Shown: positions 1 to 61,823, counted from the first letter of the stretch. The stretch: 64,000 nt of DNA from Clostridia bacterium (GCA_018432615.1 JAHDSQ010000031.1:6009-70008), one strand, 5' to 3'. A program made the numbers and translations. Notes: a model not told the origin generated them from the letters alone.

Positions 1-2
1 TG

Positions 3-1706
3 ACACCTTGGTATATAGGTAATACATCCGTCAGAAGCGCATTTCGTCTACGTGACGGTTTAGTTGCACTTTCTACATCGTATCTTCAAGGTAATATGCG
101 CGGACAGGATGGTGATCGCGCCTTCCGTGACTTGTTAGGTCAGCATGGTATCGTTTCGCTGAAAACAGATGAAACATATAGCGTGGGGCGAAAATGGCGA
201 TCGGCTCTTGGCAAGCTGGGATTTTTATACCCGGAGATCCCACATTCTGCTACAATTCGTCAAGAGGATGTTGGCGCAATGGATACAATTACGCCAAATG
301 GATGGCGGCTGATACGTGCAGATACAGTACCTGCAATGCAGGAATGCTTTTTACGTGCTTTAGCAGCTCAATTTATTGAAATTAAAAACGGTGAAGAACA
401 GCCAACTTGGTTTTCGCCACTTCGACACACTTTAGCTGTATTACTTGAATTAGAACGACAAACCGGTGAAGCCTCGGTTAATTTTATAGAAATGGCTCTT
501 CATATTCAGACAACAACCAGCGCTGATAATGTTGTTACAGTAGCTAAACGCATTATTGAACTAAGGAATGAGCGTAATTTTGCCGAATCAAAACGTCGTT
601 TTGATTCGGCAAAATATGAAGAAGCGGGTACTATATTTGGTCTAAGAGCAGCTACCTTTCGTGATTATGCTGATGCAAATATCAGGTATTTGAAGGCTAC
701 CGGTCTTGTCCAAAACAAAGGACGTGGTATCGCCTTAATACCCGAAAAGCGTCTATTTGCGGAGTTAATGGCGAGGGATACTTCCGCACCAACAAGTGAG
801 CTTGAAAGGTATACCACTCTATGTAATGGTGCGCAACTTCCTACTGATACGCAGGACGCAGCCCTGGATGTGCTTCATGATTTAATTGCGCAATTAAATC
901 AAATGGGAATTCCGTTTGTGCTTGGTGATCGGCCTGTAAATACACCAGCCGATATTGCTATTATTAGGCACGAAATAGAAGATATCATTTTTAAGCAAAA
1001 AGAAGAAATATATGCTAGCGAGCAAGCAGGTCGGTGGGAAGAAATATCAACTTATATTGACCTCATCGCATCACGTAGAGATCGCCGCCGCATAGACGAA
1101 GAAACCGAAATAGTTATCCCTCGTAGTGAGACTCCTGCCTATTTAGAGTGGACGTTATGGCGGGCCTTCTTGGCTATCGATAGCTTAGAAAACAAGCCGT
1201 ATGAAGCCAGACGGTTCAAAGTGGATCAAGACTTCTTACCGGTTGGCACTGCTCCGGGAAATGGTCCCGATTTGATTATGGAATTCCGTGATTTTGTTAT
1301 TGTTATTGAAGTTACGTTGACTGAGAGTTCAAGACAAGAGGCTGCTGAGGGTGAACCTGTCCGTCGGCATGTAGCTGATTTAATGAACCAATATGCTGAG
1401 GCAAATGGGAAACCGGTATATGGCTTGTTTATAGCTAATAATATAGACTCAAACACTGCAGAAACATTTAGAATCGGCGTTTGGTATACACGAAATGATG
1501 AGAGGATGTACTTACATATTGTTCCCTTAACTATTTCTCAATTTAATTCATTTTTTAGGGCTTTGTTTACCACAAACAATGTCACACCAGAAGCAGTGAT
1601 AAATCTAATGAACGATTGTGAGCAATACCGAGCAGACTGTGAGGCTCCTGAATGGAAAGACATGATCAGTCAGGCTGTTGAAAGAACAGTTAATGAATTG
1701 TATTAG
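3..1706 (+). CDS. AlwI-family-like type II restriction endonuclease (5' end probably beyond the window edge)
   Basis: The ORF track gives 96..1706 (536 aa), but the same frame is stop-free from nt 3 (TPWYIGNTSVRSAFRLRDGLVAL...), so the ATG at 96 may be internal. Blocks I associate from memory with Pfam RE_AlwI: GRKWRSALGKLGF near the N-terminus and APGNGPDLIMEF..VIEVTLTESSRQEAAEGEPVRRH near the C-terminus. No search was run. Confidence 0.5.
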   Translation, partial: TPWYIGNTSVRSAFRLRDGLVALSTSYLQGNMRGQDGDRAFRDLLGQHGIVSLKTDETYSVGRKWRSALGKLGFLYPEIPHSATIRQEDVGAMDTITPNGWRLIRADTVPAMQECFLRALAAQFIEIKNGEEQPTWFSPLRHTLAVLLELERQTGEASVNFIEMALHIQTTTSADNVVTVAKRIIELRNERNFAESKRRFDSAKYEEAGTIFGLRAATFRDYADANIRYLKATGLVQNKGRGIALIPEKRLFAELMARDTSAPTSELERYTTLCNGAQLPTDTQDAALDVLHDLIAQLNQMGIPFVLGDRPVNTPADIAIIRHEIEDIIFKQKEEIYASEQAGRWEEISTYIDLIASRRDRRRIDEETEIVIPRSETPAYLEWTLWRAFLAIDSLENKPYEARRFKVDQDFLPVGTAPGNGPDLIMEFRDFVIVIEVTLTESSRQEAAEGEPVRRHVADLMNQYAEANGKPVYGLFIANNIDSNTAETFRIGVWYTRNDERMYLHIVPLTISQFNSFFRALFTTNNVTPEAVINLMNDCEQYRADCEAPEWKDMISQAVERTVNELY

Positions 1707-1845
1707 GAGATATTATGTATATTGCAAATATCACAATGCGAATTTTAAAGAGGATGTTCCCCTGCGTATTGAGGTTGTAGTCAATATGATGATGTATAGT
1801 GAGGAAAACCGATGGTAAAACAACTAAACAGGGGTAGGTGCAATT

Positions 1846-4752
1846 GTGGATTATGAAGAGTTGTTTCTAAAATATCAAGCAGTATTGAAGGAAAATGAAA
1901 AATTAAAAGATGAGATAGGAAAACTGAAGTCCCAATTGCAGTTCCCAAAACCACTAAGCGGAACGGAGAATATGAGCTTTGAGATAACTAAGCCTGAAAT
2001 AAAAAGGGCAGAAGAAAATATTTTAAACTTAGACAATATGGCAGCTCCTGAAGAAAAAATCAAACTGTTCATGTCACTCTTTAGGGGACGGGAAGATGTT
2101 TATGCAAAAAGATGGGAAAACCGTAAAAAAGGGACTGCAGGGTATTCCCCGGTTTGTTTGAATGAATGGAAACCAGGGTTATGCAATAAACCAAAGGCAA
2201 ATTGCTATGGATGCAAAAACAAGGATTATGCAGCCTTGGATGAAAATGTTGTGGCTGATCATTTAAGGGGACACAATAGCTTTGTTGTGGGAATATATCC
2301 TTTGTGTCTTGATGAAACCTGTTATTTTCTCGCCATAGATTTTGACGGAGAAAATTGGCAAAAGGATATATCTGTGCTCCGTGTTATATGCTCGGAATTC
2401 TCTGTTCCATTAGCTGTTGAACGCTCTCGTTCCGGCCAAGGTGCACACGCTTGGTTTTTCTTTATTGAGCCGATACCGGCAGTACTAGCAAGAAAATTTG
2501 GCAGTGCTTTGCTTACTAATGCTATGACAAAAAGACACGAGATTAAGTTTAAGTCATATGACAGGCTCTTTCCCAATCAGGACACCATGCCTAAGGGTGG
2601 ATTGGGCAACCTTATTGCCCTACCCTTACAAAAAGCTGCCAGAAATAATGGGAATAGTGAGTTTATTGATGAAAACGGCAGATCATATGATGACCAATGG
2701 GCATATTTATCAAGTGTACAAAGAATCTCCAAAAACGAGATTGAGCAGTTTATAACGGTATTATGTCAAGGCAGTGAACTTGGAGATTTAAGAATGAACG
2801 AAGAAGAGGAAAAACCATGGGATACAAAAAAACGTGAATTGAAAAGGAATGATTTCCCGGCAAGTATTGAAATTATCAAGGCTGATATGTTGTATGTTTC
2901 AAAAACCGATATAACACAACAGGCATTAAACTATCTAAAACGATTAGCTGCTTTTAAAAACCCTGAATTCTATCGGGCACAGGCTATGCGCCTTCCTGTT
3001 AGAAAAATACCAAGAATTATTTCTTGTTCTGATGAAACTGATGAGTATTTATGCCTGCCAAGGAGCTGTGAGGCTGATATAATTGAAATATCCAGCGAAA
3101 TAGGAGTTGATGTTAGCTTTACAGATAAAACAAATCATGGCAAAAGAATTAATGTGGAGTTTAACGGAAAACTTAGGGATGATCAGCCTTTGGCAGTTAA
3201 CAGGCTGCTGCAGCATAATAATGGCATATTGTGTGGGACAACAGCGTTTGGGAAAACAGTAGCAGCAATAAAATTGATTGCCGAAAGAAAAGTTAATACG
3301 CTTGTTATTGTTGATAAGGTTAATCTGGTATCACAATGGAAAAAGAGAATCGGTGAATTTCTGACAATAAATGAGAAGCTACCTGATATGGAGACAGTGA
3401 AAAGAAGAGGACGGAAAAAATCAAGAAGTATTATTGGTCAATTAGGAGGAGGAAAGAATGAGTTAAGCGGTATCATTGATATTGCTGTTATGCAATCGCT
3501 AAACAGGATGGGTGAAATAAAGGATTGTGTAAAGGATTACGGATTAGTTATTGTTGATGAATGCCATCATGTTTCTGCTTTTAGTTTCGAAGAAATACTA
3601 AAAAAGGTTAATGCCAGATATGTTTATGGTTTAACAGCAACTCCGACAAGAAAAGACGGGCATCATCCGATTATATATATGCAGTGCGGTCCTATCCGTT
3701 TTAGGGATGATGCAAAAAAACAGGCAGAGAAAAGGCCGTTTGAACATTATATTATACCCAGATTTACATCTTTGAGGATTCCCGTAAATAAAGACGAAAA
3801 AGATGTGATGATTCAAGACTGCTATTCGGAAATCATAGTTAACGAAATGCGAAATCAGCAAATAATTGAAGATGTAATCAAGTGCTATAAAAATGGCAGG
3901 AACTGTCTTGTTTTAACGCAAAGAACTGCGCATGTAAAATTATTGACAAAAGAACTATCCAAGACGATTCCTGATGTTATAACTCTTGTGGGAGGCATGG
4001 GCGTAAAAACAACTAGAGAAACATTGCAGAGAATTTCAGATACCCCCAGTGATAAGCAACTTACATTGGTAGCCACAGGAAAGTATATAGGCGAAGGTTT
4101 TGATGAGCCGAGACTGGATACTTTGTTTCTGGCGATGCCGATTTCCTGGAAAGGTACCTTGCAGCAATATGCCGGCAGACTGCACAGGCTGTTTGAAAAC
4201 AAGGATGAGGTACAGATTTATGATTATGTTGATATAAACGTCAGAATGCTGGAGAGGATGTACCATAAGCGGCTTTCCGGCTATGCGGCTATCGGTTATA
4301 AGGCAAAAGGGGAAAGCATTGCAGCAGAATCAATTGATATTATCTTTAATAAAACCACCTTTTCTCCCGTATACGCTAATGATATATTAAATGCAACAAG
4401 GGAGATTCTGATTGTCAGCCCGTTTGTAACCAGAAAACGCAGTATGCAGTGTTTGCAAAATCTTAAAACTGCTATGCAAAATGGTGTTAATATCATTGTT
4501 GTTACCAGGCCTGCAGCTGATTTCAAAAACAAAGACTTACAAACAGTGCAAAACATCTTGGATTTATTAATTGACTCCGGCGTTAGTGTTGTATTCAAGT
4601 CAAATATACACCAGAAATTCGCTGTTATTGATCAAAAGGTTGTCTGGTACGGGAGTATAAACTTGTTAAGTTACGGAAGTGCGGAGGAAAGTATCATGCG
4701 GCTTGAAAGCGCAAACATTGCAAATGAGCTAATAAAAACCATTAATGATTGA
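1846..4752 (+). CDS. Fusion protein: archaeo-eukaryotic primase (prim-pol, of the type NCBI labels TOTE conflict system) + SF2 DEAD/DEAH helicase + C-terminal PLD/HKD nuclease-like domain
   Basis: AEP part: FRGREDVYAKRW, a Cys cluster (CLNEW..C..C..C), the DxD motif LAIDFDG, SRSGQGAHAWFFF and GNLIALPL. Helicase part: Walker A GTTAFGKTV, DECH box VIVDECHH, motif III GLTATPTR and motif VI QQYAGRLHR. C-terminus: a single HKD motif, HQKFAVIDQKVVWYGSINLL. Confidence 0.8.
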   Translation: MDYEELFLKYQAVLKENEKLKDEIGKLKSQLQFPKPLSGTENMSFEITKPEIKRAEENILNLDNMAAPEEKIKLFMSLFRGREDVYAKRWENRKKGTAGYSPVCLNEWKPGLCNKPKANCYGCKNKDYAALDENVVADHLRGHNSFVVGIYPLCLDETCYFLAIDFDGENWQKDISVLRVICSEFSVPLAVERSRSGQGAHAWFFFIEPIPAVLARKFGSALLTNAMTKRHEIKFKSYDRLFPNQDTMPKGGLGNLIALPLQKAARNNGNSEFIDENGRSYDDQWAYLSSVQRISKNEIEQFITVLCQGSELGDLRMNEEEEKPWDTKKRELKRNDFPASIEIIKADMLYVSKTDITQQALNYLKRLAAFKNPEFYRAQAMRLPVRKIPRIISCSDETDEYLCLPRSCEADIIEISSEIGVDVSFTDKTNHGKRINVEFNGKLRDDQPLAVNRLLQHNNGILCGTTAFGKTVAAIKLIAERKVNTLVIVDKVNLVSQWKKRIGEFLTINEKLPDMETVKRRGRKKSRSIIGQLGGGKNELSGIIDIAVMQSLNRMGEIKDCVKDYGLVIVDECHHVSAFSFEEILKKVNARYVYGLTATPTRKDGHHPIIYMQCGPIRFRDDAKKQAEKRPFEHYIIPRFTSLRIPVNKDEKDVMIQDCYSEIIVNEMRNQQIIEDVIKCYKNGRNCLVLTQRTAHVKLLTKELSKTIPDVITLVGGMGVKTTRETLQRISDTPSDKQLTLVATGKYIGEGFDEPRLDTLFLAMPISWKGTLQQYAGRLHRLFENKDEVQIYDYVDINVRMLERMYHKRLSGYAAIGYKAKGESIAAESIDIIFNKTTFSPVYANDILNATREILIVSPFVTRKRSMQCLQNLKTAMQNGVNIIVVTRPAADFKNKDLQTVQNILDLLIDSGVSVVFKSNIHQKFAVIDQKVVWYGSINLLSYGSAEESIMRLESANIANELIKTIND

Positions 4753-4772
4753 AAGAAGGGGTCGGCAAAGCA

Positions 4773-5534
4773 ATGAATTATAAGGAATTTATGAAAGCAG
4801 TTGATGAAATACTATCTAATATGACTGAAGTGGAAAAAACGGAATGGATACATAATGTGGCTCGAACTACGAAAGAGCATAAGAGATTTACGTTCTTAAA
4901 TTCTTTAAAAGAAGAACCGGTTTATATGCCGCTTATTGCAAAAAATGAAGTAGAGGAATGGTGTAGGAAAATAGAGAATCAGGAAATATATTTTGAAGCC
5001 AGCAGTTATGAAATTTATGGAGCAAGCTATTGGGACACCGACTATGCATATGAGTACGCCGATAGTTTTGAAATAGGGAAGGAGCTTTCCAGAGCATTTC
5101 AGATAGCAGAGGATTTGCTGTTTCAAAAAGAATATCAGCAAGCATCAGTGTTATATGAGTGGCTTTGCAGTTTATCATTCCCAACATTGGACAGCGATAT
5201 AGAGGAATGGGATGAATTGGATTTGGAGAGTTTGGTAGAAGAAAGACTGGTAAGCTTGAATTTAAAGCAGATTGCCTTGAACTTGATGTATGCAAAATAT
5301 CAGGTTGCTGCGGATGAGGAAAGGGTAGCTGCATTATACCGATATTTATCGTGGAATATGTGTAAGAACATAAAAGTAGAAGAAATGTTTACCGTAGGAC
5401 CGGAAGAACTTAAAGGAATAGGCACATTTATGGAGGAGTGGATTTCTTTTCTAAAAAATACAGCTGGCGATCGGGCAGGGGGGGCTATTGTCAGAAGCAT
5501 GTATTTATCAAGGAGATATCAACTGCTTATCTAA
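4773..5534 (+). CDS. Hypothetical protein, N-terminal part of a gene split by a frameshift at a G7 run
   Basis: The ORF track gives 4749..5534. The ATG at 4773 (MNYKEFMKAVDEIL) follows an AAGGGG Shine-Dalgarno-like site. It sits directly downstream of the primase-helicase gene (their ends overlap). No domain recognised. Confidence 0.5.
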   Translation: MNYKEFMKAVDEILSNMTEVEKTEWIHNVARTTKEHKRFTFLNSLKEEPVYMPLIAKNEVEEWCRKIENQEIYFEASSYEIYGASYWDTDYAYEYADSFEIGKELSRAFQIAEDLLFQKEYQQASVLYEWLCSLSFPTLDSDIEEWDELDLESLVEERLVSLNLKQIALNLMYAKYQVAADEERVAALYRYLSWNMCKNIKVEEMFTVGPEELKGIGTFMEEWISFLKNTAGDRAGGAIVRSMYLSRRYQLLI

Positions 5535-6432
5535 AACAGCAAGGGAAGTATGGAGAAAGCATCCGGCTCTGTATAAAGATGCTTGTGAGTATTTGCTAAA
5601 TAAAAAAAGCGCGCTTGAGTGTGAAAAGCTAGGAGTGGAAGCAATACGCACATTGCCTCGAAAGCTTATTATTCGTGGGATAATTGCAAATTTAACTGCA
5701 AAAGCTGCTGCACAACTAAAACATGCTGATATAATGAATGAATGTTATGAAGCCGCTTTTTTTTCCAAATCCACTCTGGAGCATTATTTGCGGTTATTTG
5801 AACTTCCGGACTATCAGAGCGTAGTAAAACGAGGGGCGCAGTATATTAAATCGCTGCCGGAACGTTCTGCATGGGAAGAATATCATGATAATAGACAACT
5901 GAAAGTGAATGAGCTTTCAAAGTCACATAAAAAAGTTATCCTTTTCTTTAGTGGAGACTTTGATAATATTTATGAAGAATGCATAAAAGATGAGGCTGTA
6001 TTAGGTTGGAGTACCCAGTTTAAAGGAGTTGCTGTTCCGCTTTTTATATTATTACTAAATCAAGATAAGAGGATTACAAAAGCCAAACAAGAGCTAATAG
6101 ACGGAATAAGACAAAGAATAGGATTGGCGGAAGACGATAACAAAAGCTTTGTGGACCTGTTTTTAATCTGGAAAGAAAAAACAGCCTTAAGTAAGGAACA
6201 ATATGAAAAATACATTGCATGGTTAAAAAAAGAAGTAGGGGAAAGGACAGAGGCTATTGTAGGAGAAGGTCACCGGAAAAGCTATTATAAGGCAGCCTTA
6301 TTGGTAACGGCATTAGGTGAAACATTGGAGTCAAATGGGCAGCTCTGTGGAAGAAGAGATATGATAGAGCATTATAAAAAAAAGTATCCCAGAAAAAGGG
6401 CGTTTAAAGGAGAATTTGAGAGGTTAAAATGA
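5488..6432 (+). CDS. Hypothetical protein, C-terminal part of the same split gene
   Basis: This ORF overlaps the previous one by 47 nt in another frame. Its frame is open back through the G7 run at 5478..5484, and removing one G joins the two ORFs. Helix-rich sequence with no recognisable motifs. Confidence 0.5.
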   Translation: MSEACIYQGDINCLSKTAREVWRKHPALYKDACEYLLNKKSALECEKLGVEAIRTLPRKLIIRGIIANLTAKAAAQLKHADIMNECYEAAFFSKSTLEHYLRLFELPDYQSVVKRGAQYIKSLPERSAWEEYHDNRQLKVNELSKSHKKVILFFSGDFDNIYEECIKDEAVLGWSTQFKGVAVPLFILLLNQDKRITKAKQELIDGIRQRIGLAEDDNKSFVDLFLIWKEKTALSKEQYEKYIAWLKKEVGERTEAIVGEGHRKSYYKAALLVTALGETLESNGQLCGRRDMIEHYKKKYPRKRAFKGEFERLK

Positions 6433-6620
6433 GAGACTCGGCCAGTTCTTCTTTCGAATTGATGTTTTTGTACCCTCTTTTGCTAAGCGGATGTAATATT
6501 GTAATATAGTTTCTACCATCAAGAATCGATTATGCTATAATATGCAGAAAGGAAAATATATTAAGGCAATAATCAGAGCAGTATCGACAAAAGGGAAGTT
6601 CCCGAATCTTATGGTGATGT

Positions 6621-7343
6621 ATGATGAATAAGTATAAAATCGCGGTCTGTGATGACCGTCCGGAGGAATTGAATAAGATTTGCGATAAGATCGGGCGTAT
6701 ACTCGAGAACATTAATGGGGGTTACACCATTACCAAGTTTATGTCCGGAGAAGGTGTAGCGGATGCTATTGTCAATCAGAAAAAGAAGTTCGATATTGTG
6801 TTTCTTGATATTATAATGGCTAAAGTAAATGGCCTTGTAGCTGCACGAAAAATAAGGGAACAGGATGAGGATGTGAGTATAGTCTTTATCACCGGTTCCC
6901 CGAATTTTGTCTTTGAAGGATATGATGTTCAGGCATTGCACTATATTCTCAAACCCGTTGATGAGAGTAAACTTGCGAAAATATTGCTATACGACTGGAA
7001 GAAAAGAAATGAGAAACACTATATAGACGTAAAACTGAAAAATTCTGTCTGCCGGATAATACTAGATGACATCTGCTACTTGGAATCTAGTGGCAGAAAA
7101 GTAAGGATTATTACGAAAGACGGACAATACGAGACCTATGGATCATTAAGCCGGTTTACTGATATACTTCCTACAAGCCGGTTTATATCGTGTCACAAGA
7201 GTTTTGTGGTCAACCTAGATTATATCTCGGAAATATCCAGGACATCTTTTACCACAATCTACAATCAGGTTATTCCCATCAGTAAGGCTTGCTATTCCGA
7301 GGCAAAAAAAGCTTTTATAAACTTTATAGGAAGCACTACCTGA
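6621..7343 (+). CDS. LytTR-family response regulator (REC + LytTR DNA-binding domain)
   Basis: N-terminal receiver (KIAVCDD..., FLDIIM, ITGS) and a C-terminal LytTR-like block (ICYLESSGRKVRIITKDGQYETYGSLS...FISCHKSFVVNLDYI). Confidence 0.9.
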   Translation: MMNKYKIAVCDDRPEELNKICDKIGRILENINGGYTITKFMSGEGVADAIVNQKKKFDIVFLDIIMAKVNGLVAARKIREQDEDVSIVFITGSPNFVFEGYDVQALHYILKPVDESKLAKILLYDWKKRNEKHYIDVKLKNSVCRIILDDICYLESSGRKVRIITKDGQYETYGSLSRFTDILPTSRFISCHKSFVVNLDYISEISRTSFTTIYNQVIPISKACYSEAKKAFINFIGSTT

Positions 7344-9168
7344 CCTTAATAACCAGTTTTATGATGAAGCGGTTTCTGTCATACTCAATATCCAGCACAC
7401 CGTGGTATTTTTCCACTATCTCTTCGATTATACCCATACCCAGGCCGCGCCTTGTATCACTTTTCGTAGCAGAAGATTTTGTCGAGATGTACCTGCCATC
7501 CTCCATAATAATGTCATTGTTTTTACTGTTCATGCAAGATACATGCATGAACTCGTTTTTTATATTACAGACCAGCTCTATATCTTTGGGTGAATTATCC
7601 TCTATAGCTGCACAGGCCTCTATGGCATTATCGATAATATTGATAAAGAGGCTATAGAAATCACTGTCATTGATTTTGATATTTTCCGGCAGGTCGATGT
7701 CATGTTTAAAGCTAATATTTTTCTGTTCCGCTTCTTTAATCGCGTACCCCATGATATGGTTAAGAAGCTGGTTTTTGCTGAAGACTATTTGTTTTTTCAA
7801 GGGATAACTTGTGCAAATTTGGGATAGATATTCCCTGGCCCGGGGCAGGTCCCCCTGCTCCAGTAAAAGTTCCAGGGCGTTAAAATGGTGATTGATATCG
7901 TGGTTTAATATGCTAGCCTCTTTTATATATTCTTGGATATCTTCAAAATGCTCAAGGGCCAGCCTGTTCTTGACCTCTGAGGCTTGAAAATCTGCCAGCA
8001 GCCGGGCATTCTCCCGGAAATAATCATTAATTCTGCCTACCACCTCAATGGTGATAAACAAGACGAGCCCGAATTTTGAAAATGTTTCTACATCGCTAAA
8101 GTGCATGGGATTTCCCAACTTACTGTTGGCCTTGTCGGCTAAAACCATGAATATGAGGATAAACCCGGCATATTTTAATCTTTGCAGAGCCGTATCATTT
8201 GCATGTATTTCCCTGATAAAAGCGCCAACACTGAGGGCATAATAGAGCGGAACAAGATAGACGAAGATGGCCAGAAGCCTTGTCGGGGGGGCGGGCATAA
8301 AAACCTGCATAAGTGAAAGGGGTAAATAGCCTACAAGATGCAGGATAAGAGCAATAAGAATAGGGACCCTGAATTTGCTGCACGAGGTATAAGTAAACAA
8401 AAGCACTGAGCATGGCAGCAGATAATTTACCATCATCAAGACCAGAGTTGCTTGCATAGGTTCAAACAGTATCAGAGGCAAAAGGGTTTTCCCCGGAAGA
8501 AAAAGGCCAACCAGAATCACAAACACTCCAAACCAGAAATCCGCTGTAACGGCCTGTTCATTATTCCTACGAATAAAATAGATGCAAAATAGGGTTAGGC
8601 CCAAGAGGCAAAGGAAAATTCCCGCGGCGAACAGGGGAATTGATTTTCCCACAGCAAAGGAGATTAAGGATTCCTCATCTCCCATGTATATACTGTTCAG
8701 GCGAAGATTCATGGTAGGTGTCAGTGTAAGGGTAATTTCCTTACCGACATAATCATTTGGCAGAGGAATCAGGACGAGTTTTTTCCCCGGTGAGGAAAAT
8801 GATGTTTTTTCATAGCCGTAACGGTAGATTTCCTCCCCATCAAGCTGGGCAATGACTTGTAGATAATCTGATCTGAACATCAGAGCAGCGTTATTTCCCC
8901 GGTCGGACAGGCTATGACTAAGATAACAGTTTTCATGGAGATAGATGCCTTCCGTACCACTAGGAAGTTTGATGGGTTTTGGTGTTGGGTCATGTTCCGT
9001 ATAATACTGCCACTGTTCTGATATATCCGTGATGTTTTGGGTCAGATAGGGGGAAGAGCATACCTGAATGAAAGCATATATTAACGTTATAAGGAGAAGA
9101 AGTAATAAAACCGGTAAGAGATAGCTGGACGGTTTTATTTTTTTATTTGCTTTTCCGAACAGGTGCAT
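7336..9168 (-). CDS. Membrane sensor histidine kinase, HPK10/AgrC-like GHKL type, with an extracytoplasmic N-terminal domain and multi-TM region
   Basis: Signal/TM segment, a ~150-aa outside domain and about 7 hydrophobic segments. H-box HDINHHFNAL, N-box NIIDNAIEA and G-box RRGLGMGIIEEIVEKYHG. Confidence 0.85.
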   Translation of the reverse strand: MHLFGKANKKIKPSSYLLPVLLLLLLITLIYAFIQVCSSPYLTQNITDISEQWQYYTEHDPTPKPIKLPSGTEGIYLHENCYLSHSLSDRGNNAALMFRSDYLQVIAQLDGEEIYRYGYEKTSFSSPGKKLVLIPLPNDYVGKEITLTLTPTMNLRLNSIYMGDEESLISFAVGKSIPLFAAGIFLCLLGLTLFCIYFIRRNNEQAVTADFWFGVFVILVGLFLPGKTLLPLILFEPMQATLVLMMVNYLLPCSVLLFTYTSCSKFRVPILIALILHLVGYLPLSLMQVFMPAPPTRLLAIFVYLVPLYYALSVGAFIREIHANDTALQRLKYAGFILIFMVLADKANSKLGNPMHFSDVETFSKFGLVLFITIEVVGRINDYFRENARLLADFQASEVKNRLALEHFEDIQEYIKEASILNHDINHHFNALELLLEQGDLPRAREYLSQICTSYPLKKQIVFSKNQLLNHIMGYAIKEAEQKNISFKHDIDLPENIKINDSDFYSLFINIIDNAIEACAAIEDNSPKDIELVCNIKNEFMHVSCMNSKNNDIIMEDGRYISTKSSATKSDTRRGLGMGIIEEIVEKYHGVLDIEYDRNRFIIKLVIKVR

Positions 9169-9424
9169 ATCTATCCGACACCTTTCCTGTATTTTCTACC
9201 TTGTTCTAATAGTAGCAGTACGAAATCATTTACTCAACAGGGGACTCCCCCAAATATTACAAAAAGTAGCCCAATTTTGACAACCGAGTAGGAATCATTA
9301 AGGCTATTCGGTAACATAGAAACAGAGAATCTTTATGCTATTAAATTTTCATGCTATTAAATAAGGCCTTTATTTGTATTGGACTTTTAGCATATTAATA
9401 AAATCGAAGAGGAGGAGTACTTTA

Positions 9425-12400
9425 GTGAATATCAAGAAGATTTCGAAGCTGCTTATTGCGGCGTTGCTATTCCCAATTTTATCATGTTTTCTCTTTAGCT
9501 TTAACCTAGAGAGAGCGCAGGCGGAACCCTTGTCGTTCAACGGACTATATGAAACCTGGTATAACTCTGTTAGGCTTGATAAAAACGATCGTAGTATACC
9601 GGATGTCGTATTCGGATATAGTCACAACGTAACCGAGGGTAATGCAAAAGATCCTGAGGATAACATAGCCGGCTTTGCAAAAGAAGAGACAAGAAAAGCG
9701 TATGATACTTTTGACAAAAGTGTGGTATTCAAGGAGACGGGCATCTATCAAGGCAAGTACGGGTTCAGGATTAACAGCCTTGACTGGGATGATGAATGGT
9801 ACAGCAAGTACATCTGGGGGGAATTTACCGGATATATTAAATTTCCTGTGGGTGAAACTCTATTCCATGGAACCCTTGACAGCAGATCCAGGTTAATTGT
9901 TGAAATTGACGGAAAGAGAGTTGTTGATAAATGGGATAGTATCCCAAACACAAAAGAAGCATTGGAGGGGAATCCTTATGATAGTTCCATTAGAAACACA
10001 TATTTATCAAAGATAAAGGTGGAAGAAGAGGGAGCTCTTATCAGGATACAGAACGAACCGGGGAATCAATACAAGCAGATTCGTATTCTGATAGGGAGGA
10101 CCGGCGAGAGAATACCTGAGGATTATTATTATTGTAAGGAGGCAGTTTCAATTGGTTATTATGGACTAGCTGAATTGTGGGCTTACAAACCTTTTCCCAT
10201 ATCCTCGTTCTATACCACAATTCCGGCCAAAGACCTGGGACCATATCTTAAACTTGATGATGAAAAGGATGACGTGCGATTCACCGGTGTTGCCAGAACT
10301 CTGGATTTATCACGGTATCAGTACGGTTTTGGGCAATTGACCCCTTCGGGTCAATTGCAAATGCCGCAAGAATTTTACGATTTCGATTTTTATAACCAGT
10401 ATGTGGGTGATGTGGCCGGAATATTGATGATTAAAGACAAGGGCTCAAATTCCCAAGCGGAAATGCTGCAAGCCGGGGAGTTCACCAAAGGCCTGACCGC
10501 GCCGAAAGATCTTGCCATAACCTGTCGGGGCATTGCTGAAAACACCCTGGAATGGACAGCCGCCAAAACTAGCAGCGCCATCAAAGAATACCAAATATAC
10601 AGGCGGACTATTAGGGATACGGAAGGATTTATTCAGATTAATCCTGCCTCGGAGAAGATTGGGGTAACAACAGCAACAAGGTACACTGATGAGGCGTTGG
10701 AGGTCAATTATATTCAGGAAGGAATTTATGAATACACGGTCAAGGCGGTAGACAAGAAGGGCAATATCTCGGAGGAAAGCAACCCGGTCAGAACCGACAA
10801 AGTGCCGATTACGGATCCTCCCACAACTCCCGCCGGTTTGGAGCTGGTGTCCAAGGGACCCGACGAGGTTAATCTGAAGTGGAAGGCATCTTCCGACAGT
10901 AGCGGTATAGAAAAATATGTAGTTTTGCGGCAAATGACCTGGCAGGAAAACGGCACCGGAAGATTAGAGTTGTTGCCTAAACTTATCGGGTCCTCCACAA
11001 GAACGGAATATAAAGATACTTCATATGAGGATGGTCCATACAAAGACCACTCCTTGGAAATGGGTCAGGCCTACAAATACTGGGTAATGGCCGTAGATTC
11101 CGACAAAAACCCCTCCGCAAGAAGCAATGCAGTGACTGTCAGGGTTCCTACGGCACCCTTGGCACCCACAGAGCTGAAAGCCGGTTCAATCTATCAGCCT
11201 GAAGGGAAGGTGGAATTCTTCATCCCGCCCAGCAAAAGGGAAGGGGTAGTAAATGCGGCCTATTCCGTTTTCTTAGGTCCGCAAAAAGAAGCCTACCTGG
11301 AGTGGAAACCCTCAGAGGGTGAGTATAAAGTTGTTGGCTATGATATCTATCGTGAAGGTCGTGGGTTGAACTATTCTGAAAGGGCCGAGTCGCTAGCCTG
11401 GCTGGAAGATAAGCATAAAGTGGCTACTACAAGGGATACATTCTTTACCGACAGCGGTCTTAATCCCGGTGGCAGCTATACTTATACGGTTGTAGCCCGG
11501 GGTGAGGAAGATTGCGGATTTCCCGGAGAGCAGGTTCGTGTGCATACCATATGTCCCTATTTGCATGATTTGACCTTAAGCAGCGGCACGTTGGAACCCT
11601 CTTTCAGCTACCATCATCAGGAGTATACCGCCCAGGTGGAATATGCGGTGGAAACTATCACATTAAAGCCTACGCATCTTGATGACTGTTCCACGGTCAT
11701 GGTGAACGGAAAAGAAGTGCTTCCGGGCAGAGTATCGGAGAAGGTGCGGTTGGATCTCGGGCCCAATACTATAAATGTTGATGTCCTTTCGAGAAAAACT
11801 GATAATCCCTACATGGAAAAGCAGGTGCGCTATACAATTACGGTCAACCGGGAAAATATGAAAAACCCTCCTAAGCTGACTCTGCCTCAAGAGGTAACGG
11901 TTTTAGATGAGGGTGACACATACCGGGCGGAAGGACTTCTTGCTGTTACAGAGGAAACTCAGGCAATTTCAAAGGGCAAGTGGCAGGGTCTGGTTGATTA
12001 CGGTGACGGCACCAAGCCGCAGAAGCTTTCTCTTAATTCCGACGGCACTTTCCAACTGCAGCATCAATATAAGGACGACGGGGATTATGACGTCGCTGTT
12101 ACCTTTATTTATCAAGGTGTGGGTGAAGTTACCGAACACACATCTGTAAAAGTTCATAACGTGGCGCCTGAATTTAAAGGGCCGGGTATGGTTGACGAGG
12201 TCGAGGCCATGGAGGGAGAGACCGTCAGTTTGGATGGAATGGTTGTTGACCCCGGGGATGACACTTGGGAATTGGCTGTGGATTATGATAATGCCCTGGG
12301 GCCTCTAACGGTTTCTTTAAATCCTGATAAGACTTTTACCCTTAAACACAAGTTTTATGATTCTCGCCCCCTTTATGATATCTCCATAAAGGTAGCAGAC

Positions 12401-13702
12401 GATGAAGGCGCTTTTGCGAAAAGGGATATCAAGGTGAACGTAAATAATGTAATTCCTGCTGTGGAAATCGGTTCGGATGCGGTTGTTCAGAAGGGAGTCA
12501 CTTTTACCAGGGCAGGACAGTTTAGCGATCCCGGTCTTGACACTTGGAAGGCGTATGTTAATTACGGTGACGGCAGGGGTGAACAGGAACTGAGTTTAAG
12601 TGAGGGCAAAACCTTTAATCTAAGGCATGTTTACCCGACTAAAGGCAGTTATACGGTTACCGTAAGAGTTGAGGATAATGACGGAGGCGAAGGCCGGGCC
12701 TCTTTTGCGGTAAAGGTAAAGGACTATGTAATATCACCTCAGGCCGGGGATGATGCTTCCCTTGATGAAGGGCAGAATTTGCAGCGGACTGTTCAAATAA
12801 ATGGTCCGGGGGACAAAATTGACAGTGTCACAGTCGATTATGGGGATGATTCCGGTGAGAAAACTCTTCCATTGTTAGAGAGGAACATCAGCGTGGGGAT
12901 GACGGATGCTGTTGACAGGAGAGACGCAGGCGGTGCGTCTGGTATCGGTGGTAATCAGACGGATGCCATAACAATGAAAACAGGGGCGGTTCAGTTGGGA
13001 CATGTTTATAGCGATGACGGAAGTTATACCGTGTCGGTGAAAGTAACGGATGAGGACGGGGACTGCTATGAAGATTCCTTCCATGTAGATGTTGCTAACG
13101 TGGCACCAGAGGTTAAGATTAACAGTTCCGGGAACATACGAGAGGGGGAAACATTCATCTGTTCAGGTTCTTTCAGCGACCCGGGAGCTGATGAATGGAT
13201 GGCCACTATTGATTTTGGAGACGGCAGAGGAGAGCTTCCGCTTGATCTCAGCGGCGATAAAACATTCAGCGCAAGTCACTGTTATAATTCATTCGGGAAC
13301 TATACAGTATCGGTCAAAGTACGCGACAAGGACGGCGGCGAAGGTGAGGATACAGTCTTACTATGGGTTCAGTCAAGAGGAGGCGGAGCTTCCGGCAATG
13401 CCGATTTGAGCAACCTTGTCTTGAATGGCTGTGTCCTTAGCCCTGAGTTTAGTGCGGATTGTCTGGATTACACCGTAGTCTACGGAGATGATTCAACAAG
13501 TGTTACGGCTACGGCGTCCGATTCGGAAGCTAGCATAGCTGCCTATAATTGGGGAACTGACACTTGGGTTAGTATGACAAGCGGAGAGTCGCAGAGTGTG
13601 TCCTTCGGAGGGGGGGCTACGCCTGAGGACTCGGCGAGGATGTTAATAAGAGTAACTGCAGCCAATGGTGCGACCAAAACATATACGGTTACAAAATCAT
13701 GA
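9425..13702 (+). CDS. Very large secreted multidomain protein (Fn3-like, repeated PKD-like DYGDG modules, cadherin-like beta-sandwich domains)
   Basis: The ORF track gives 9374..13702. A GTG at 9425 follows GGAGGAGGA and gives the signal-like N-terminus VNIKKISKLLIAALLFPILS. The sequence has repeated (V/N)(D/N)YGDG...V(T/K)D(E/N)DG units and two (L/V)SPEF/LEPSF..Y cadherin-like segments. Confidence 0.8.
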   Translation: MNIKKISKLLIAALLFPILSCFLFSFNLERAQAEPLSFNGLYETWYNSVRLDKNDRSIPDVVFGYSHNVTEGNAKDPEDNIAGFAKEETRKAYDTFDKSVVFKETGIYQGKYGFRINSLDWDDEWYSKYIWGEFTGYIKFPVGETLFHGTLDSRSRLIVEIDGKRVVDKWDSIPNTKEALEGNPYDSSIRNTYLSKIKVEEEGALIRIQNEPGNQYKQIRILIGRTGERIPEDYYYCKEAVSIGYYGLAELWAYKPFPISSFYTTIPAKDLGPYLKLDDEKDDVRFTGVARTLDLSRYQYGFGQLTPSGQLQMPQEFYDFDFYNQYVGDVAGILMIKDKGSNSQAEMLQAGEFTKGLTAPKDLAITCRGIAENTLEWTAAKTSSAIKEYQIYRRTIRDTEGFIQINPASEKIGVTTATRYTDEALEVNYIQEGIYEYTVKAVDKKGNISEESNPVRTDKVPITDPPTTPAGLELVSKGPDEVNLKWKASSDSSGIEKYVVLRQMTWQENGTGRLELLPKLIGSSTRTEYKDTSYEDGPYKDHSLEMGQAYKYWVMAVDSDKNPSARSNAVTVRVPTAPLAPTELKAGSIYQPEGKVEFFIPPSKREGVVNAAYSVFLGPQKEAYLEWKPSEGEYKVVGYDIYREGRGLNYSERAESLAWLEDKHKVATTRDTFFTDSGLNPGGSYTYTVVARGEEDCGFPGEQVRVHTICPYLHDLTLSSGTLEPSFSYHHQEYTAQVEYAVETITLKPTHLDDCSTVMVNGKEVLPGRVSEKVRLDLGPNTINVDVLSRKTDNPYMEKQVRYTITVNRENMKNPPKLTLPQEVTVLDEGDTYRAEGLLAVTEETQAISKGKWQGLVDYGDGTKPQKLSLNSDGTFQLQHQYKDDGDYDVAVTFIYQGVGEVTEHTSVKVHNVAPEFKGPGMVDEVEAMEGETVSLDGMVVDPGDDTWELAVDYDNALGPLTVSLNPDKTFTLKHKFYDSRPLYDISIKVADDEGAFAKRDIKVNVNNVIPAVEIGSDAVVQKGVTFTRAGQFSDPGLDTWKAYVNYGDGRGEQELSLSEGKTFNLRHVYPTKGSYTVTVRVEDNDGGEGRASFAVKVKDYVISPQAGDDASLDEGQNLQRTVQINGPGDKIDSVTVDYGDDSGEKTLPLLERNISVGMTDAVDRRDAGGASGIGGNQTDAITMKTGAVQLGHVYSDDGSYTVSVKVTDEDGDCYEDSFHVDVANVAPEVKINSSGNIREGETFICSGSFSDPGADEWMATIDFGDGRGELPLDLSGDKTFSASHCYNSFGNYTVSVKVRDKDGGEGEDTVLLWVQSRGGGASGNADLSNLVLNGCVLSPEFSADCLDYTVVYGDDSTSVTATASDSEASIAAYNWGTDTWVSMTSGESQSVSFGGGATPEDSARMLIRVTAANGATKTYTVTKS

Positions 13703-13733
13703 TTTTTTCGTAATCGCTTGTATGTTCCCCCTG

Positions 13734-13781
13734 ACAAATAGAGTAGGGAAACCATATAAATGGTTTCCCTACTCTATTTGT
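13734..13781. terminator. Bidirectional rho-independent terminator between convergent genes
   Basis: Perfect 22-bp stem ACAAATAGAGTAGGGAAACCAT / ATGGTTTCCCTACTCTATTTGT with a 4-nt loop, between the stops at 13702 (+) and 13801 (-). Confidence 0.7.
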
Positions 13782-13800
13782 ACAGGCAGCCTACAGTATT

Positions 13801-16671
13801 CTACAGAAAATACCCGGCGGCTTCTTCATAAATCTCTCGGTATCTAATTCTTTTTTCAACTGCCCAATGTGCTTCGAAATCTGATAAATACTCCCCTTTA
13901 TACAAGGATAGCAGCTTTCGGGCTTGTTCCTTGGTATTTTGCAGCTTGAATGCTTGATATGAACTTTCATAGAGGTCACAGTCCCACGCAATTTCGTCCC
14001 GACAGATAAAATAGCGGTTTTCCCGGCAGATAACCGCTTCCGCTATGCCGGCGTGTTTAAGGTCATTTCTGAGGTGCGTCAGATTGACTGCAATCAAATT
14101 CTTGATGTTATTGGCCTCCGAATCTTGCCAAATAGCGTTATATATCTGTTCTTTTGTAGCTCCCCGTTCACCGGCATCAAGCAAAAAGGCCAGAAGCTCA
14201 CGTTCCTTTTTCGACCTGAATTTCAGGTGCTTTTGCCTGTTTTTGCCTTCATAAGCGGCAAAGCCGCCCAAAGTTTCAATATACACTATCTTTGGCTTGT
14301 ATCCGGCAAAATCCATCATCTGCCTTGTGAATTCCGGTTCAATCCCATTGTCATACGCAAACTCAAGAACCTGGTCGTAAGCTTTACGCATCCTGAAATA
14401 TTCATAGAGCCCATTGTCGGAGCAGAGCTTAAGATAACGCTGCGTGAGAACGGTCGCCTTTTCATAATCCTTTGTCTCTATGGCTGCTTTTACGAGTATT
14501 CCGTAGGCTAGGGAGGGATGAAGCATCATATTGGCTTTCTCTCCGACTTCTACACACAGGCTGGCACACTTTACCGCATTCGGGTAATCGGATATAGCGG
14601 AAAAATACCCCATCAGTCTTGCCAGGACAAGGTTCTTCAAATAAGCACCTGCCTTGTCGAGGTTTTCAAAGATTTCCCCCACACTGTCTTCCTGTGGGAT
14701 GTCGGAGAAAATGAGACTATAGGTAAGCCGCTGCATTTTTGCCCAATGCATCTGGAAATCGGTTTTACGATAGAGAGGCGCGTACTCGTCCGCCAAGGTA
14801 AAATACTTAATCGCAGCCTCAAAGGAAGCATTTTCACCGTTCATTTTATCTATAAAGGCGTTCTGGTAATGGATTTCAGCCGCAAGCAGGTAGCCTGCCC
14901 ACATTTCTTCATAGTTGCCTGTGTTGATGAGTTGTTGAAGCTCCTCCGACAATATTGACAGGGAACGGTTTCTGTCTCCCAACATCTGATAAGCCTTGGC
15001 AGCATAGATGTCGGTGCTGTGCATCCCGAGGTATTTCAGTTCCTCCACGGGTATCGCGAGGGATTTTTCATAATAGTAAACAGATTCTTTCATTCTTCCT
15101 GCAAAAAAATGTATAGTGCTCAAATACCTCTCAAACCAAAGCATGACCTTCAGATTACCGCCATTGGCACAGGCTTCTATCATTTGCCGGGACAGAGAAT
15201 ATGCTTCGTTGATCCGGGAATCCCAGCATAGGTTGTATAACTTTTCAATGACTACAGAATAAGCTAATTCGTCGGCTTGACTGTCAAGCTTTGCAATCAG
15301 TTCGTCCAGCAGTCTGTTGGATTCCTCAAAGGAGATAAAATTACGGAGAACCCTTGCTTTATGCAGCATGGCTTCAAAGTACAGGCTCTTTTCGTCAGTA
15401 TTTAATGAAGGTAACGCCGCTTCAAGGCAGGCCTTGGCCCGGACAAAATTGCCCATAACGGAAAGCAAGGCACCCTTTGCTACAAGGAGCTCCGGGCTCC
15501 ATTCATAAGTAGCATTATCCAGTGCCTTAAACCATATTCGGAGCTCATGGAAATTACCTGTCTTGATAAAATCCCTGTAACAGGTCAGGATGATTGTTCC
15601 CAGCAGTTCGTAGTCTTGTGAATCCATAGCGTAACGGGCTGCCCTTGAGTATTGCTTCTTTTTAAAATAATATCGGGCTGCTTTCTGTAGCAGTACAGGT
15701 TTTTGGGATTTATCCCCCGCTTCCAGCAGGCTGTTCCTAAAAAGCGAGTGGTAACGGTAGAATCCTTCGCTCGTCTTAATAATGAAAATATTACGGGATA
15801 CAAGGCTTTCCAAGATAAGCCTTGTATTTTTTATATTCAGGACAACATCCAGCATCTCTGCGTCCAGTTCGTCAAAGAAGGCGGATTTTTTTACGAAATC
15901 TACCATGCCGGAGCTCAGATTAGCGATGCATTCATAGAAAAGGTAAGAGTACAGGGCTTCGTTTCCATAAGCAGGAATGTCATCAATGGATATACCGTTC
16001 TCCAGTAAGACCTTGAAAGAACCGATGGCAAGGGGCCACCCCTCTGTTGTACTGTAAAGGGAGAAATCGTCAAAGCCCAGGATACAGGCGGTCTCCTCCC
16101 TCGTAAAAGCAAGTTCCTTTTGAGTTACCTCCAGGAGATCACCTCTTATTCTGAGGGGTAGAAGATCACTCCAAGGAGCCTCCCTGCTGCCGAAACAGAT
16201 TCTGGCGTTTTTGGGAGGATAATTGGTCAGGTAAGTTAAAAGCTTTTTAACTCCGGCTTCCTCAATTGTATGTACATCATCCAGGATCAAAACAAAATCT
16301 TGGGGGATATTTTCAATACCGCATATCAGCGAGCCTGCAAGCATAGAGACGAAATTATCTCTTTCGAAAAAGGGCAGGTATTCCGACACGGTGAAGTTAA
16401 AATCCGGGAAAGTCTGCTTTATGGCTTCGCAGAATGTATTTACCCAGATAAAAATATCATCCTCTCCATCCAGTGAAAGCCAGACGGCGTATTCCGCCGT
16501 ATTGGCAATCTGTGAAAGGAGGGTTGTCTTGCCGTAGCCCGCACCCCCGTGGATGTATGCCAGTTTTTTTGAACCGGTAAGGACTTTATCCATTAAACTT
16601 TTTCGCTCGATTTGCCCCAGGGCGGGTTTCGGAACCGTCAGTCTTGCACTTGGTATCTTGAGCATATTCAA
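13801..16671 (-). CDS. STAND-type ATPase transcriptional regulator with a C-terminal SARP-like winged helix + BTAD segment
   Basis: N-terminal P-loop GGAGYGKTTLLSQ, Walker B-like LILDDVH and a long helical/TPR-like middle. The C-terminus ETLGGFAAYEGK...KERELLAFLL...IYNAIW...LRNDL followed by LYKGEYLSDF..W is typical of SARP/BTAD DNA-binding regions. Confidence 0.7.
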   Translation of the reverse strand: MNMLKIPSARLTVPKPALGQIERKSLMDKVLTGSKKLAYIHGGAGYGKTTLLSQIANTAEYAVWLSLDGEDDIFIWVNTFCEAIKQTFPDFNFTVSEYLPFFERDNFVSMLAGSLICGIENIPQDFVLILDDVHTIEEAGVKKLLTYLTNYPPKNARICFGSREAPWSDLLPLRIRGDLLEVTQKELAFTREETACILGFDDFSLYSTTEGWPLAIGSFKVLLENGISIDDIPAYGNEALYSYLFYECIANLSSGMVDFVKKSAFFDELDAEMLDVVLNIKNTRLILESLVSRNIFIIKTSEGFYRYHSLFRNSLLEAGDKSQKPVLLQKAARYYFKKKQYSRAARYAMDSQDYELLGTIILTCYRDFIKTGNFHELRIWFKALDNATYEWSPELLVAKGALLSVMGNFVRAKACLEAALPSLNTDEKSLYFEAMLHKARVLRNFISFEESNRLLDELIAKLDSQADELAYSVVIEKLYNLCWDSRINEAYSLSRQMIEACANGGNLKVMLWFERYLSTIHFFAGRMKESVYYYEKSLAIPVEELKYLGMHSTDIYAAKAYQMLGDRNRSLSILSEELQQLINTGNYEEMWAGYLLAAEIHYQNAFIDKMNGENASFEAAIKYFTLADEYAPLYRKTDFQMHWAKMQRLTYSLIFSDIPQEDSVGEIFENLDKAGAYLKNLVLARLMGYFSAISDYPNAVKCASLCVEVGEKANMMLHPSLAYGILVKAAIETKDYEKATVLTQRYLKLCSDNGLYEYFRMRKAYDQVLEFAYDNGIEPEFTRQMMDFAGYKPKIVYIETLGGFAAYEGKNRQKHLKFRSKKERELLAFLLDAGERGATKEQIYNAIWQDSEANNIKNLIAVNLTHLRNDLKHAGIAEAVICRENRYFICRDEIAWDCDLYESSYQAFKLQNTKEQARKLLSLYKGEYLSDFEAHWAVEKRIRYREIYEEAAGYFL

Positions 16672-60984: not shown

Positions 60985-61020
60985 CGTGTGAAGTTTGAAA
61001 AGCATGTGAACCTATGAAAA
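60985..61020 (+). promoter_or_regulatory. TGTGA direct-repeat motif upstream of precursor 4
   Basis: CGTGTGAAGTTTGAAAAGCATGTGAACCTATGAAAA. The TTGAAA(A)GCATGT part also occurs at 43962..43975, upstream of precursor 1. Confidence 0.3.
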
Positions 61021-61037
61021 AGAAAGGATGGATCGAA

Positions 61038-61394
61038 GTGGCAACAAATTTTGAATTATTGCAGGCAAAACTGGAGGCAGACCCGGCTTTTGGGAAAAAA
61101 CTGATTGAACTGGAAACGGCAGAGGAAGCCCAAAGAATCTTAAAAGCAGAAGGAATGGAATTTACAGTGGAAGAGCTCAACTCTTTTGCTGAGGCGGTAA
61201 ACAAATACGGGGACAGCGAGGGCGAGCTTTCCGACGAAGCCCTGGAGGGCGTAGCCGGCGGTGTTGCTCTGGCCACCGTTGCGGCAGCGGCGACACTTTT
61301 CTCAATTGGCGATAGTATGACCGGCGGCCATGTCAGGAGAGCAGTTTCCAGCGGGGTCAGACGGGCGGCCAGGCGTATTTTCAGAGGTTGGTAA
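61038..61394 (+). CDS. Long Nif11-like leader RiPP precursor 4 (43-aa core VALATVAAAATLFSIGDSMTGGHVRRAVSSGVRRAARRIFRGW)
   Basis: Leader ATNFELLQAKLEADPAFGKKLIELETAEEAQRILKAEGMEFTVEEL...ELSDEALEGVAGG. The GTG at 61038 sits 6-8 nt after AAAGGATGG. The track start ATG 61014 lies inside a conserved upstream motif that reads GTG in the sister copy. Confidence 0.8.
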   Translation: MATNFELLQAKLEADPAFGKKLIELETAEEAQRILKAEGMEFTVEELNSFAEAVNKYGDSEGELSDEALEGVAGGVALATVAAAATLFSIGDSMTGGHVRRAVSSGVRRAARRIFRGW

Positions 61395-61413
61395 GCAGAG
61401 TAAAGTAAAAAAA

Positions 61414-61431
61414 CATGTGAATCTGTGAAAA
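61414..61431 (+). promoter_or_regulatory. TGTGA direct-repeat motif upstream of precursor 5
   Basis: CATGTGAATCTGTGAAAA. Confidence 0.3.
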
Positions 61432-61448
61432 AGAAAGGATGGATTGAA

Positions 61449-61805: not shown

Positions 61806-61823
61806 GGACTGGACAAGCGATAG

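Follow-up and report, generated by a model that had tools for sequence, protein, structure and literature searches.

TOTE conflict systems, credited to Aravind, Iyer and Burroughs 2022 (as cited in PMC12458937), take their name from TPR, OB, TBP and Effector, with a TPR-cold-shock fusion and a TATA-binding-protein homolog as shared genes (PMC12458937). We analyzed a block of three co-oriented genes on the plus strand at 3..6432 of a 64,000-nucleotide stretch of Clostridia bacterium DNA (GCA_018432615.1 JAHDSQ010000031.1:6009-70008, hereafter the window), the middle gene of which encodes a megaprotein of the AEP-TOTE family. This protein joins an archaeo-eukaryotic primase (AEP, or prim-pol) domain to a superfamily 2 (SF2) helicase and a phospholipase D (PLD)-type nuclease. 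Upstream of it lies a gene for an AlwI-family restriction endonuclease and downstream a gene for an all-alpha solenoid protein, which we call ORF3 after its open reading frame (ORF). A first-pass annotation made from the sequence alone had described the same three genes, all of which are in our ORF listing, and had read them as one defense module. Our analysis favors a different explanation, that the block is an island of independent units in which the megaprotein is an autonomous single-polypeptide defense system of the AEP-TOTE family. Taken as a whole, we rate this proposal slightly above an even chance. The features are listed in Table 1.

Table 1. Features of the block, with positions counted from the first nucleotide of the window.
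Feature	Position	Strand	Basis
AlwI-family type IIS restriction endonuclease gene, lacking its first codon only	3..1706	+	PF09491; PADLOC REase_II
AEP (prim-pol)/SF2 helicase/PLD nuclease megaprotein gene, 968 aa, GTG start	1846..4752	+	domain matches, motif conservation
N-terminal heptad (leucine-zipper-like) segment, residues 6-31, predicted dimerization element	1861..1938	+	a/d pattern
AEP primase-polymerase domain, residues 70-302	2053..2751	+	PF22548
SF2 helicase/translocase core of XPB/Rad25/ResIII type, residues 442-796	3169..4233	+	ResIII, DEAD, Helicase_C, XPBII
Single-HKD PLD-family nuclease domain, residues 845-966	4378..4743	+	PLDc_2, E 4e-13
ORF3, one gene for an all-alpha, TPR-like solenoid protein, two ORFs in the window	4773..6432	+	homologs contiguous across the junction
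G7 homopolymer with +1 frameshift	5478..5484	+	G6 restores the frame and gives AGGLLSEACIYQG as in homologs
Right-hand island border	6433..6596	.	between-strain identity falls from 99.84% to ~95.8%

Architecture of the megaprotein and the closest described systems

The AEP domain of the megaprotein matched the PF22548 (AEP-TOTE) model over positions 1-230 of 230 with an E-value of 9e-102 (340 bits against a cut-off of 27). It also matched the PADLOC model for CRISPR-associated PrimPol (CAPP), PDLC01465, with an E-value of 6e-91, and its closest solved structure by sequence was CAPP (7nqd/7nqf, E 4e-8). Pfam matches to ResIII (5e-21), DEAD (1e-12) and Helicase_C (8e-5) spanned residues 442-782, and the solved proteins closest to the helicase were XPBII/Rad25 (6p4f, E 5e-22), suggesting that the megaprotein is not a replicative helicase. 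In PADLOC the PLD domain matched the C-terminus of MkoC (5e-14), DrmC (3e-7) and DpdK (1e-4). Near the N-terminus, a heptad pattern with a core Asn could be read from the sequence (a/d positions L6, Y10, V13, N17, L20, I24, L27 and L31), and the segment had a HALZ match with an E-value of 0.0026, which is below the Pfam cut-off.

We then measured motif conservation on an alignment of 78 family members. The AEP motifs D165xD167 and S196-G-x-G-x-H201 and the downstream acidic residues D239/D246 were kept in 76-78 of the 78, while the helicase motifs GKT (469-471, motif I), DECH (571-574, motif II), TATP (597-600, motif III) and QxxGRxxR (773-781, motif VI) were invariant in 77-78. The PLD domain was present in only 12 of the 78 relatives, and in those 12 both H922xK924(x)4D929 and G936-S-x-N939 were conserved. 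The domains and motifs named in the first-pass annotation (DxD, SxH, GKT, DECH, QxxGRxxR and HKD) were thus all recovered, with HKD conserved in the PLD-bearing relatives; the Cys cluster that it had included with them does occur, but in only 15 of the 78. Since every AEP, helicase and PLD catalytic motif is intact, the megaprotein is predicted to be catalytically competent.

The locus has in common with TOTE systems the end-to-end PF22548 match of an effector and, as a candidate for the TPR component, the neighboring solenoid of ORF3, which is TPR-like by weak fold matches. On the other hand, there was no OB/cold-shock gene and no TATA-binding-protein homolog among the called genes of the window block or of L083, a Logan assembly contig from a sister strain that aligns with window 1..14746. 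A search of 185,579 species genomes (one genome per species) identified 331 relatives of the megaprotein, and 80 of these loci were examined with flanks of up to 10 kb. OB and TBP genes were absent from the top 25 of the 160 neighbor families at the 80 loci, and the sole S1 match among the neighbors (3.6e-86) looks like the housekeeping ribosomal protein S1. Furthermore, ORF3 is without a cold-shock domain, matches no Pfam TPR or TOTE model and is absent from the 80 related loci. A full TOTE system was rejected because OB and TBP partners were not found in the window block, in L083 or among the top 25 neighbor families; the megaprotein is filed under the AEP-TOTE protein family while the locus is not filed as a TOTE system.

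The CAPP enzymes share with the megaprotein the AEP domain described above. However, the AEP domain here shares its polypeptide with an SF2 helicase and a PLD nuclease, and the NCBIfam model for CAPP (NF040561) scored the megaprotein at 104 bits against a cut-off of 200. No cas genes were present in the block or in the flanks of L083, and the window contained no CRISPR-like array. Mokosh type II (MkoC), DISARM (DrmC) and Dpd (DpdK) resemble the megaprotein in that a helicase and a C-terminal PLD nuclease occur in one polypeptide or operon, yet the similarity was confined to the PLD domain plus weak generic helicase stretches. Neither MkoA/B nor DrmA/DrmB (DUF1998) nor the Dpd partner genes were found in the window or L083. 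The Mokosh helicase is of a different (SF1 RNA-helicase) type, and we know of no AEP domain in Mokosh, DISARM or Dpd systems. Archaeal XPB, which pairs with the nuclease Bax1, offers the nearest analogy in function, as the megaprotein also pairs an XPB-like helicase with a nuclease. Bax1, however, is a protein of its own whose nuclease fold is different; it belongs to a repair pathway and not to a mobile island, and no primase is involved.

The island and its three genes

The G+C content of the block was 0.390 as compared to 0.448 for the rest of the window, in line with the AT-richness that had been judged by eye, and no other 6.4-kb stretch of the window was lower. Alignment with L083 gave 10 differences in 1..6432 (99.84% identity) and ~347 differences in 6596..14746 (~95.8% identity), indicating that the island was shared or replaced far more recently than the right flank diverged. 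The switch in identity was located between the stop codon of ORF3 and a LytTR regulator gene (start 6621), and this interval is a right-hand recombination or insertion border. On the left, the low-GC tract of L083 starts at ~4.2-4.8 kb, shortly ahead of two methyltransferase genes. We take the block to be the two thirds on the right of a defense island of ~10 kb that was acquired horizontally. The low G+C content, the fall in identity and the defense and mobile-element neighbors of megaprotein relatives (see below) all support the first-pass reading of a defense-type island. Flanking direct repeats were not found at the island borders, none of the genes called on L083 encodes an integrase, and no tRNA or other Rfam family occurred anywhere in the window.

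The AlwI-like protein carries a full-length RE_AlwI domain (PF09491, E 6e-126, 421 bits against a cut-off of 23) and matched the REBASE-derived PADLOC model REase_II (PDLC03463) at 1053 bits over profile positions 4-566 of 570. Its closest solved relative was N.BspD6I/R.BspD6I (E 3e-22). The gene in L083 encodes a 100% identical protein of 568 aa and starts one base ahead of the window, and the copy in the window is effectively complete. The first-pass annotation had described this ORF as open at the edge with no methyltransferase visible, which is correct within the window, and had proposed to look further left. Two genes lie directly upstream of the AlwI gene in L083, one for an N6_N4_Mtase (297 aa) and one for a protein with a double MethyltransfD12 (Dam-type) domain (636 aa). 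The two adjoining genes point to a self-contained type IIS restriction-modification system, predicted to be complete alone, with its methyltransferases just beyond the left window edge. The locus resembles the AlwI/BspD6I/BstNBI systems in its endonuclease domain, its closest structure and its adjacent methyltransferase genes, and differs from them in having three methyltransferase domains across two genes. We consider the AlwI-type system to be routine.

A 21+21 nt near-perfect palindrome, a possible operator or terminator, was noted at L083 5114-5155, ~3 kb before the window begins and immediately upstream of the first methyltransferase gene. Under a maximal-order Markov model, GGATC, GATCC, GAGTC and GACTC were near expectation in the window, and GGATC and GAGTC showed no specific depletion. 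Under the same model, GATC was two-fold under-represented over 1-64000 (121 observed as compared to 241 expected). This points to selection over a long time by a GATC-specific system, and not by the AlwI-type enzyme.

The two ORFs seen downstream of the megaprotein gene (4749..5534 and 5488..6432) are a single gene, because homologs continue across their junction (AGGLLSEACIYQG). The first-pass annotation had given ~575 aa for the two if joined. The sister strain has six G residues in place of seven, and its 560-aa product (P0017) is intact. The 261-aa fragment ORF3a, looked up exactly, gave no match. Within the island the window and L083 differ by no indel other than G7/G6, and the G-run was specific to the lineage and not conserved in other ORF3 homologs, which argues against a conserved switch; a conserved phase-variable G-tract was rejected on these grounds. 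Both a real slip confined to this lineage and one error in sequencing or assembly would explain the extra G. The homologs start with MNY(K/N)EF, which corresponds to the ATG at 4773 behind a purine-rich aagaagggg at 4754-4762. From this ATG ORF3 would be ~552 aa long, and 560 aa if it started at the TTG at 4749. The overlap with the stop codon of the megaprotein gene, on which the first-pass annotation had remarked, is thus an artefact of ORF calling.

An AlphaFold2 model of ORF3 built from a 73-sequence alignment had a pLDDT of 93.7 and a pTM of 0.89, and replaced an earlier model from 9 sequences that was unusable (pLDDT 60). The model predicts a solenoid of paired helices and, at residues 82-157, a small insert of four strands, so the all-alpha fold proposed in the first-pass annotation holds apart from this insert. 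The top Foldseek matches in the PDB were TPR superhelices (OGT, LGN, SKI3, APC/C subunits and IFIT1), and they were weak (E ~1e-3, TM ~0.2), indicating that ORF3 is TPR-like and without a close solved relative. No Pfam, NCBIfam or PADLOC family matched ORF3 or its 73 relatives, just as no domain had been recognized by eye, and the plasmid and phage collections held no ORF3 match. A full scan with a hidden Markov model (HMM) found 682 cluster representatives, typically of 535-600 aa, where a word-indexed search had given 14. Members stood alone beside a type II restriction-modification pair (L090), beside Fic and DUF3990/DUF3791 or beside unrelated genes, and others were next to toxin-antitoxin and HEPN genes. 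The only fusion partner in the longer members was one uninformative Metallophos domain. ORF3 therefore belongs to a large, unannotated family whose members usually stand alone.

Most of the close ORF3 homologs in L084/L085, L086, L087 and L088/L089 showed decay: they had lost residues 275-460 internally, were frameshifted or had shrunk to short remnants. The L088/89 locus still has part of the megaprotein PLD end just upstream. A 170-aa gene with a CxxCxxCC (PF03692) zinc/iron-chelating domain was found directly upstream of the TPR-like gene on four contigs in three distinct contexts (L084 5254-5769; L086 1366-1878; L087 4384-4899), and is absent from the window.

We looked for the three genes together at the 80 megaprotein loci. 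No AlwI or ORF3 homolog was detected by tblastn, and an HMM made from 73 ORF3-family members also found none, including at loci of PLD-bearing relatives with 63-72% identity. The one-operon three-gene module was rejected on this result. The first-pass annotation had made the co-occurrence of its genes in other genomes a test of the module, and its proposal is further contradicted by the AlwI gene having its own methyltransferases and by the ORF3 family being mostly solitary. The megaprotein adjoins ORF3 only in the closest ORF3 clade (60-73% identity), in four of seven contexts, namely window/L083, L082, L084/85 with the gene order reversed, and L088/89 where both genes are remnants. The megaprotein in L083 is identical to that of the window. 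In the window and in L084 the megaprotein is intact beside an ORF3 that is broken by a frameshift (window) or an internal deletion (L084). The fact that ORF3 is repeatedly decayed while the megaprotein stays intact makes it at most an optional partner. It does not fit the role of third component given to it in the first-pass annotation, since it is broken in this strain and the megaprotein is kept without it in the Desulfovibrionaceae loci L008 and L016.

Proposed function of the megaprotein and the alternatives

L008 and L016 are PLD-bearing relatives from another phylum with 71-72% identity to the megaprotein, indicating cross-phylum transfer. Recurrent neighbors of megaprotein relatives were AbiEi/AbiEii, HipA, DUF4143 ATPases, a SWIM-SNF2 helicase and a GHKL ATPase, and those of the PLD-bearing relatives included Schlafen/AlbA_2 (SLFN_AlbA_2), a serine recombinase and TnsD/TniQ. 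Toxin-antitoxin, integrase, resolvase and TniB families also came up when 148 distinct neighbor clusters were surveyed, and no partner recurred. Relatives without the PLD domain were found on alphaproteobacterial conjugative plasmids, with 43-46% identity over residues 1-818 and the same AEP and SF2 architecture. These were annotated only as DEAD/DEAH box helicases (for example on Dinoroseobacter shibae pDSHI01), and 33 such plasmid records covered at least 80% of the query. On pDSHI01 (L091) the AEP-helicase lies among DUF736 genes and a strawberry-notch gene, and on Sinorhizobium pSinB (L092) among DUF736, ArdC-like zincin, ParB and traA/traG genes, contexts that resemble conjugative leading regions. 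These plasmid proteins therefore share the AEP and SF2 architecture with the megaprotein and differ from it in lacking the PLD domain and in their leading-region-like context.

A further group of PLD-less AEP-helicases was noted in Acidobacteriota (L079 4488-6016 and 16 other loci), followed by two conserved genes, one encoding 129 aa (11 loci) and the other 380-419 aa (17 loci). The sole Pfam match of the 129-aa protein was a marginal, partial one to Calci_bind_CcbP (22.3 bits against a cut-off of 21.5), the larger protein had no Pfam match, and neither had a PADLOC match. That ORF3 might be the larger protein (gene c3) was tested by profile-profile comparison and rejected, as only a 75-column C-terminal stretch aligned, which was not significant (E 0.028, probability 1.8%).

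Under the explanation that we favor, the first unit of the island would be the complete AlwI-family restriction-modification system, of which the endonuclease gene alone is inside the window. The second would be the megaprotein. Where a PLD protein has one HKD motif only, its active site arises by dimerization, as is established for Nuc and BfiI. Because two copies are needed per active site, we propose that the megaprotein is probably a dimer, through its predicted N-terminal zipper and its single-HKD PLD domain. The XPB-like SF2 motor would spend ATP on opening foreign DNA or moving along it. The prim-pol domain would then bind the single strand so exposed and synthesize a short primer on it, and the PLD nuclease would cut the invader. 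The coupling of nucleic-acid synthesis to target destruction put forward in the first-pass annotation is likewise a hypothesis. The third unit, the ORF3 solenoid, would join the megaprotein only in this narrow clade. Its most plausible role would be that of a sensor or adaptor, and an optional one: the megaprotein would be kept without it, and here the +1 G slip would have knocked it out. The analysis itself shows the genes present, their domains, the intact motifs, the frameshift, the island and the mutual independence of its units; that the megaprotein and ORF3 act in defense, that the megaprotein dimerizes and that events follow this order is inferred. One may go further and suppose that the megaprotein is a self-contained immune enzyme of a new mechanistic class, a priming-coupled restriction in which priming on self-opened DNA recognizes or licenses the invader for PLD cleavage, and that the TPR-like family is a hitherto unrecognized, optional sensor module for this and other defense genes, an extension that we regard as doubtful.

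The megaprotein is a member of a family predicted computationally to oppose phages and plasmids, and its function is likewise a prediction. It is a clean, motif-intact example of this comparative-genomics effector family, for which we found no paper reporting a test. It consists of one gene, is found in hundreds of species from several phyla and on many plasmids, and is easily mutated, which makes it a practical candidate for studying the role of a primase in immunity. The more exciting reading, a new three-component system, was set aside. ORF3 proved to be a frameshifted representative of a large family of TPR-like proteins without annotation. Genes of this family occur near those for restriction, toxins and defense, and their contexts merit a systematic survey.

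Several points weigh against the explanation of independent units. No experimental link of the AEP-helicase-PLD family to phage or plasmid resistance was found in the literature, and a model of the whole megaprotein is missing from both PADLOC and NCBIfam, which gave partial, domain-level matches only. The order of unwinding, priming and cutting is inferred and has no direct support, and no Pfam TPR model matches ORF3, so that its assignment comes from the weak fold matches given above. In addition, the adjacency of ORF3 and the megaprotein in close relatives could reflect a real two-gene system, and the plasmid context of the PLD-less relatives fits the establishment of transferred DNA as well as it fits carried defense cargo.

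The first of these two alternatives makes the TPR-like protein an obligatory partner of the megaprotein in a defense system of two genes, or of three with AlwI as in the first-pass annotation, in which the TPR-like protein senses the invader or regulates the enzyme. The two genes are on the same strand with a gap of 20 nt, they are adjacent in four of the seven closest-clade contexts, and they have diverged to a similar extent (68-71% for the megaprotein and 67-71% for ORF3), which indicates that linkage within the lineage is not random. A TPR partner would also be in character given the TPR in the name TOTE, as PMC12458937 explains it. However, an obligatory partner is hard to reconcile with its absence from all 80 megaprotein loci, with the reversed gene order in L084, with an intact megaprotein beside a frameshifted or internally deleted ORF3, or with distant ORF3 relatives that stand alone beside other genes; the three-gene version additionally meets the lack of AlwI homologs at the 80 loci and the methyltransferases that AlwI has of its own. 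We therefore judge such a system unlikely. Slightly less probable again is that the AEP-helicase serves a mobile element, in complementary-strand priming, DNA establishment or counter-defense, and that the block is the remnant of an integrated element. The conjugative-plasmid relatives near DUF736, ArdC-like, ParB, strawberry-notch and traA/traG genes speak for this, as do the integrases, resolvases, TniB and TnsD near chromosomal relatives. Since plasmids also carry defense cargo, the plasmid context is ambiguous; the helicase, moreover, is of the XPB/ResIII and not the replicative SF3/DnaB type, and the megaprotein has in addition a nuclease domain whose active-site motif is intact. The first-pass annotation had named a replication module flanked by replication and structural genes as the outcome that would count against defense, and no conjugation, replication or structural genes were found in the window block or the L083 flanks, nor any match to the full architecture among 50,697 phage genomes.

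Another possibility is that the megaprotein is an enzyme of DNA damage tolerance or repair, with PrimPol-type repriming, an XPB-like helicase and a nuclease, and that it neighbors the restriction system by chance. Its helicase is closest to the XPB/Rad25 repair helicases, and a bacterial PrimPol-RT defense protein reportedly has a part in a response to oxidative damage as well (PMC12439943). We nevertheless consider a repair role very improbable, given the patchy distribution of the family (331 among 185,579 species genomes), its close relatives across phyla, the low G+C content and recent transfer of the gene, and its toxin-antitoxin and mobile-element neighbors.

Neighboring genes and repeats in the window

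Two genes lie immediately to the right of the island, at 6621-9168. One encodes a LytTR response regulator; the other, which is convergent with it and overlaps it, encodes a histidine kinase (HATPase_c_5) and has a 9-bp indel relative to the sister strain. Repeats of 117 bp were present in the coding sequence of two adjacent large genes at 30944-32735. At 60998-61806 we found a 411-bp tandem duplication (2 copies, 87% matches) that runs across short ORF starts. It lies in a part of the window that the first-pass annotation had assigned to ribosomally synthesized and post-translationally modified peptides (RiPP), and may represent duplicated small-peptide genes.

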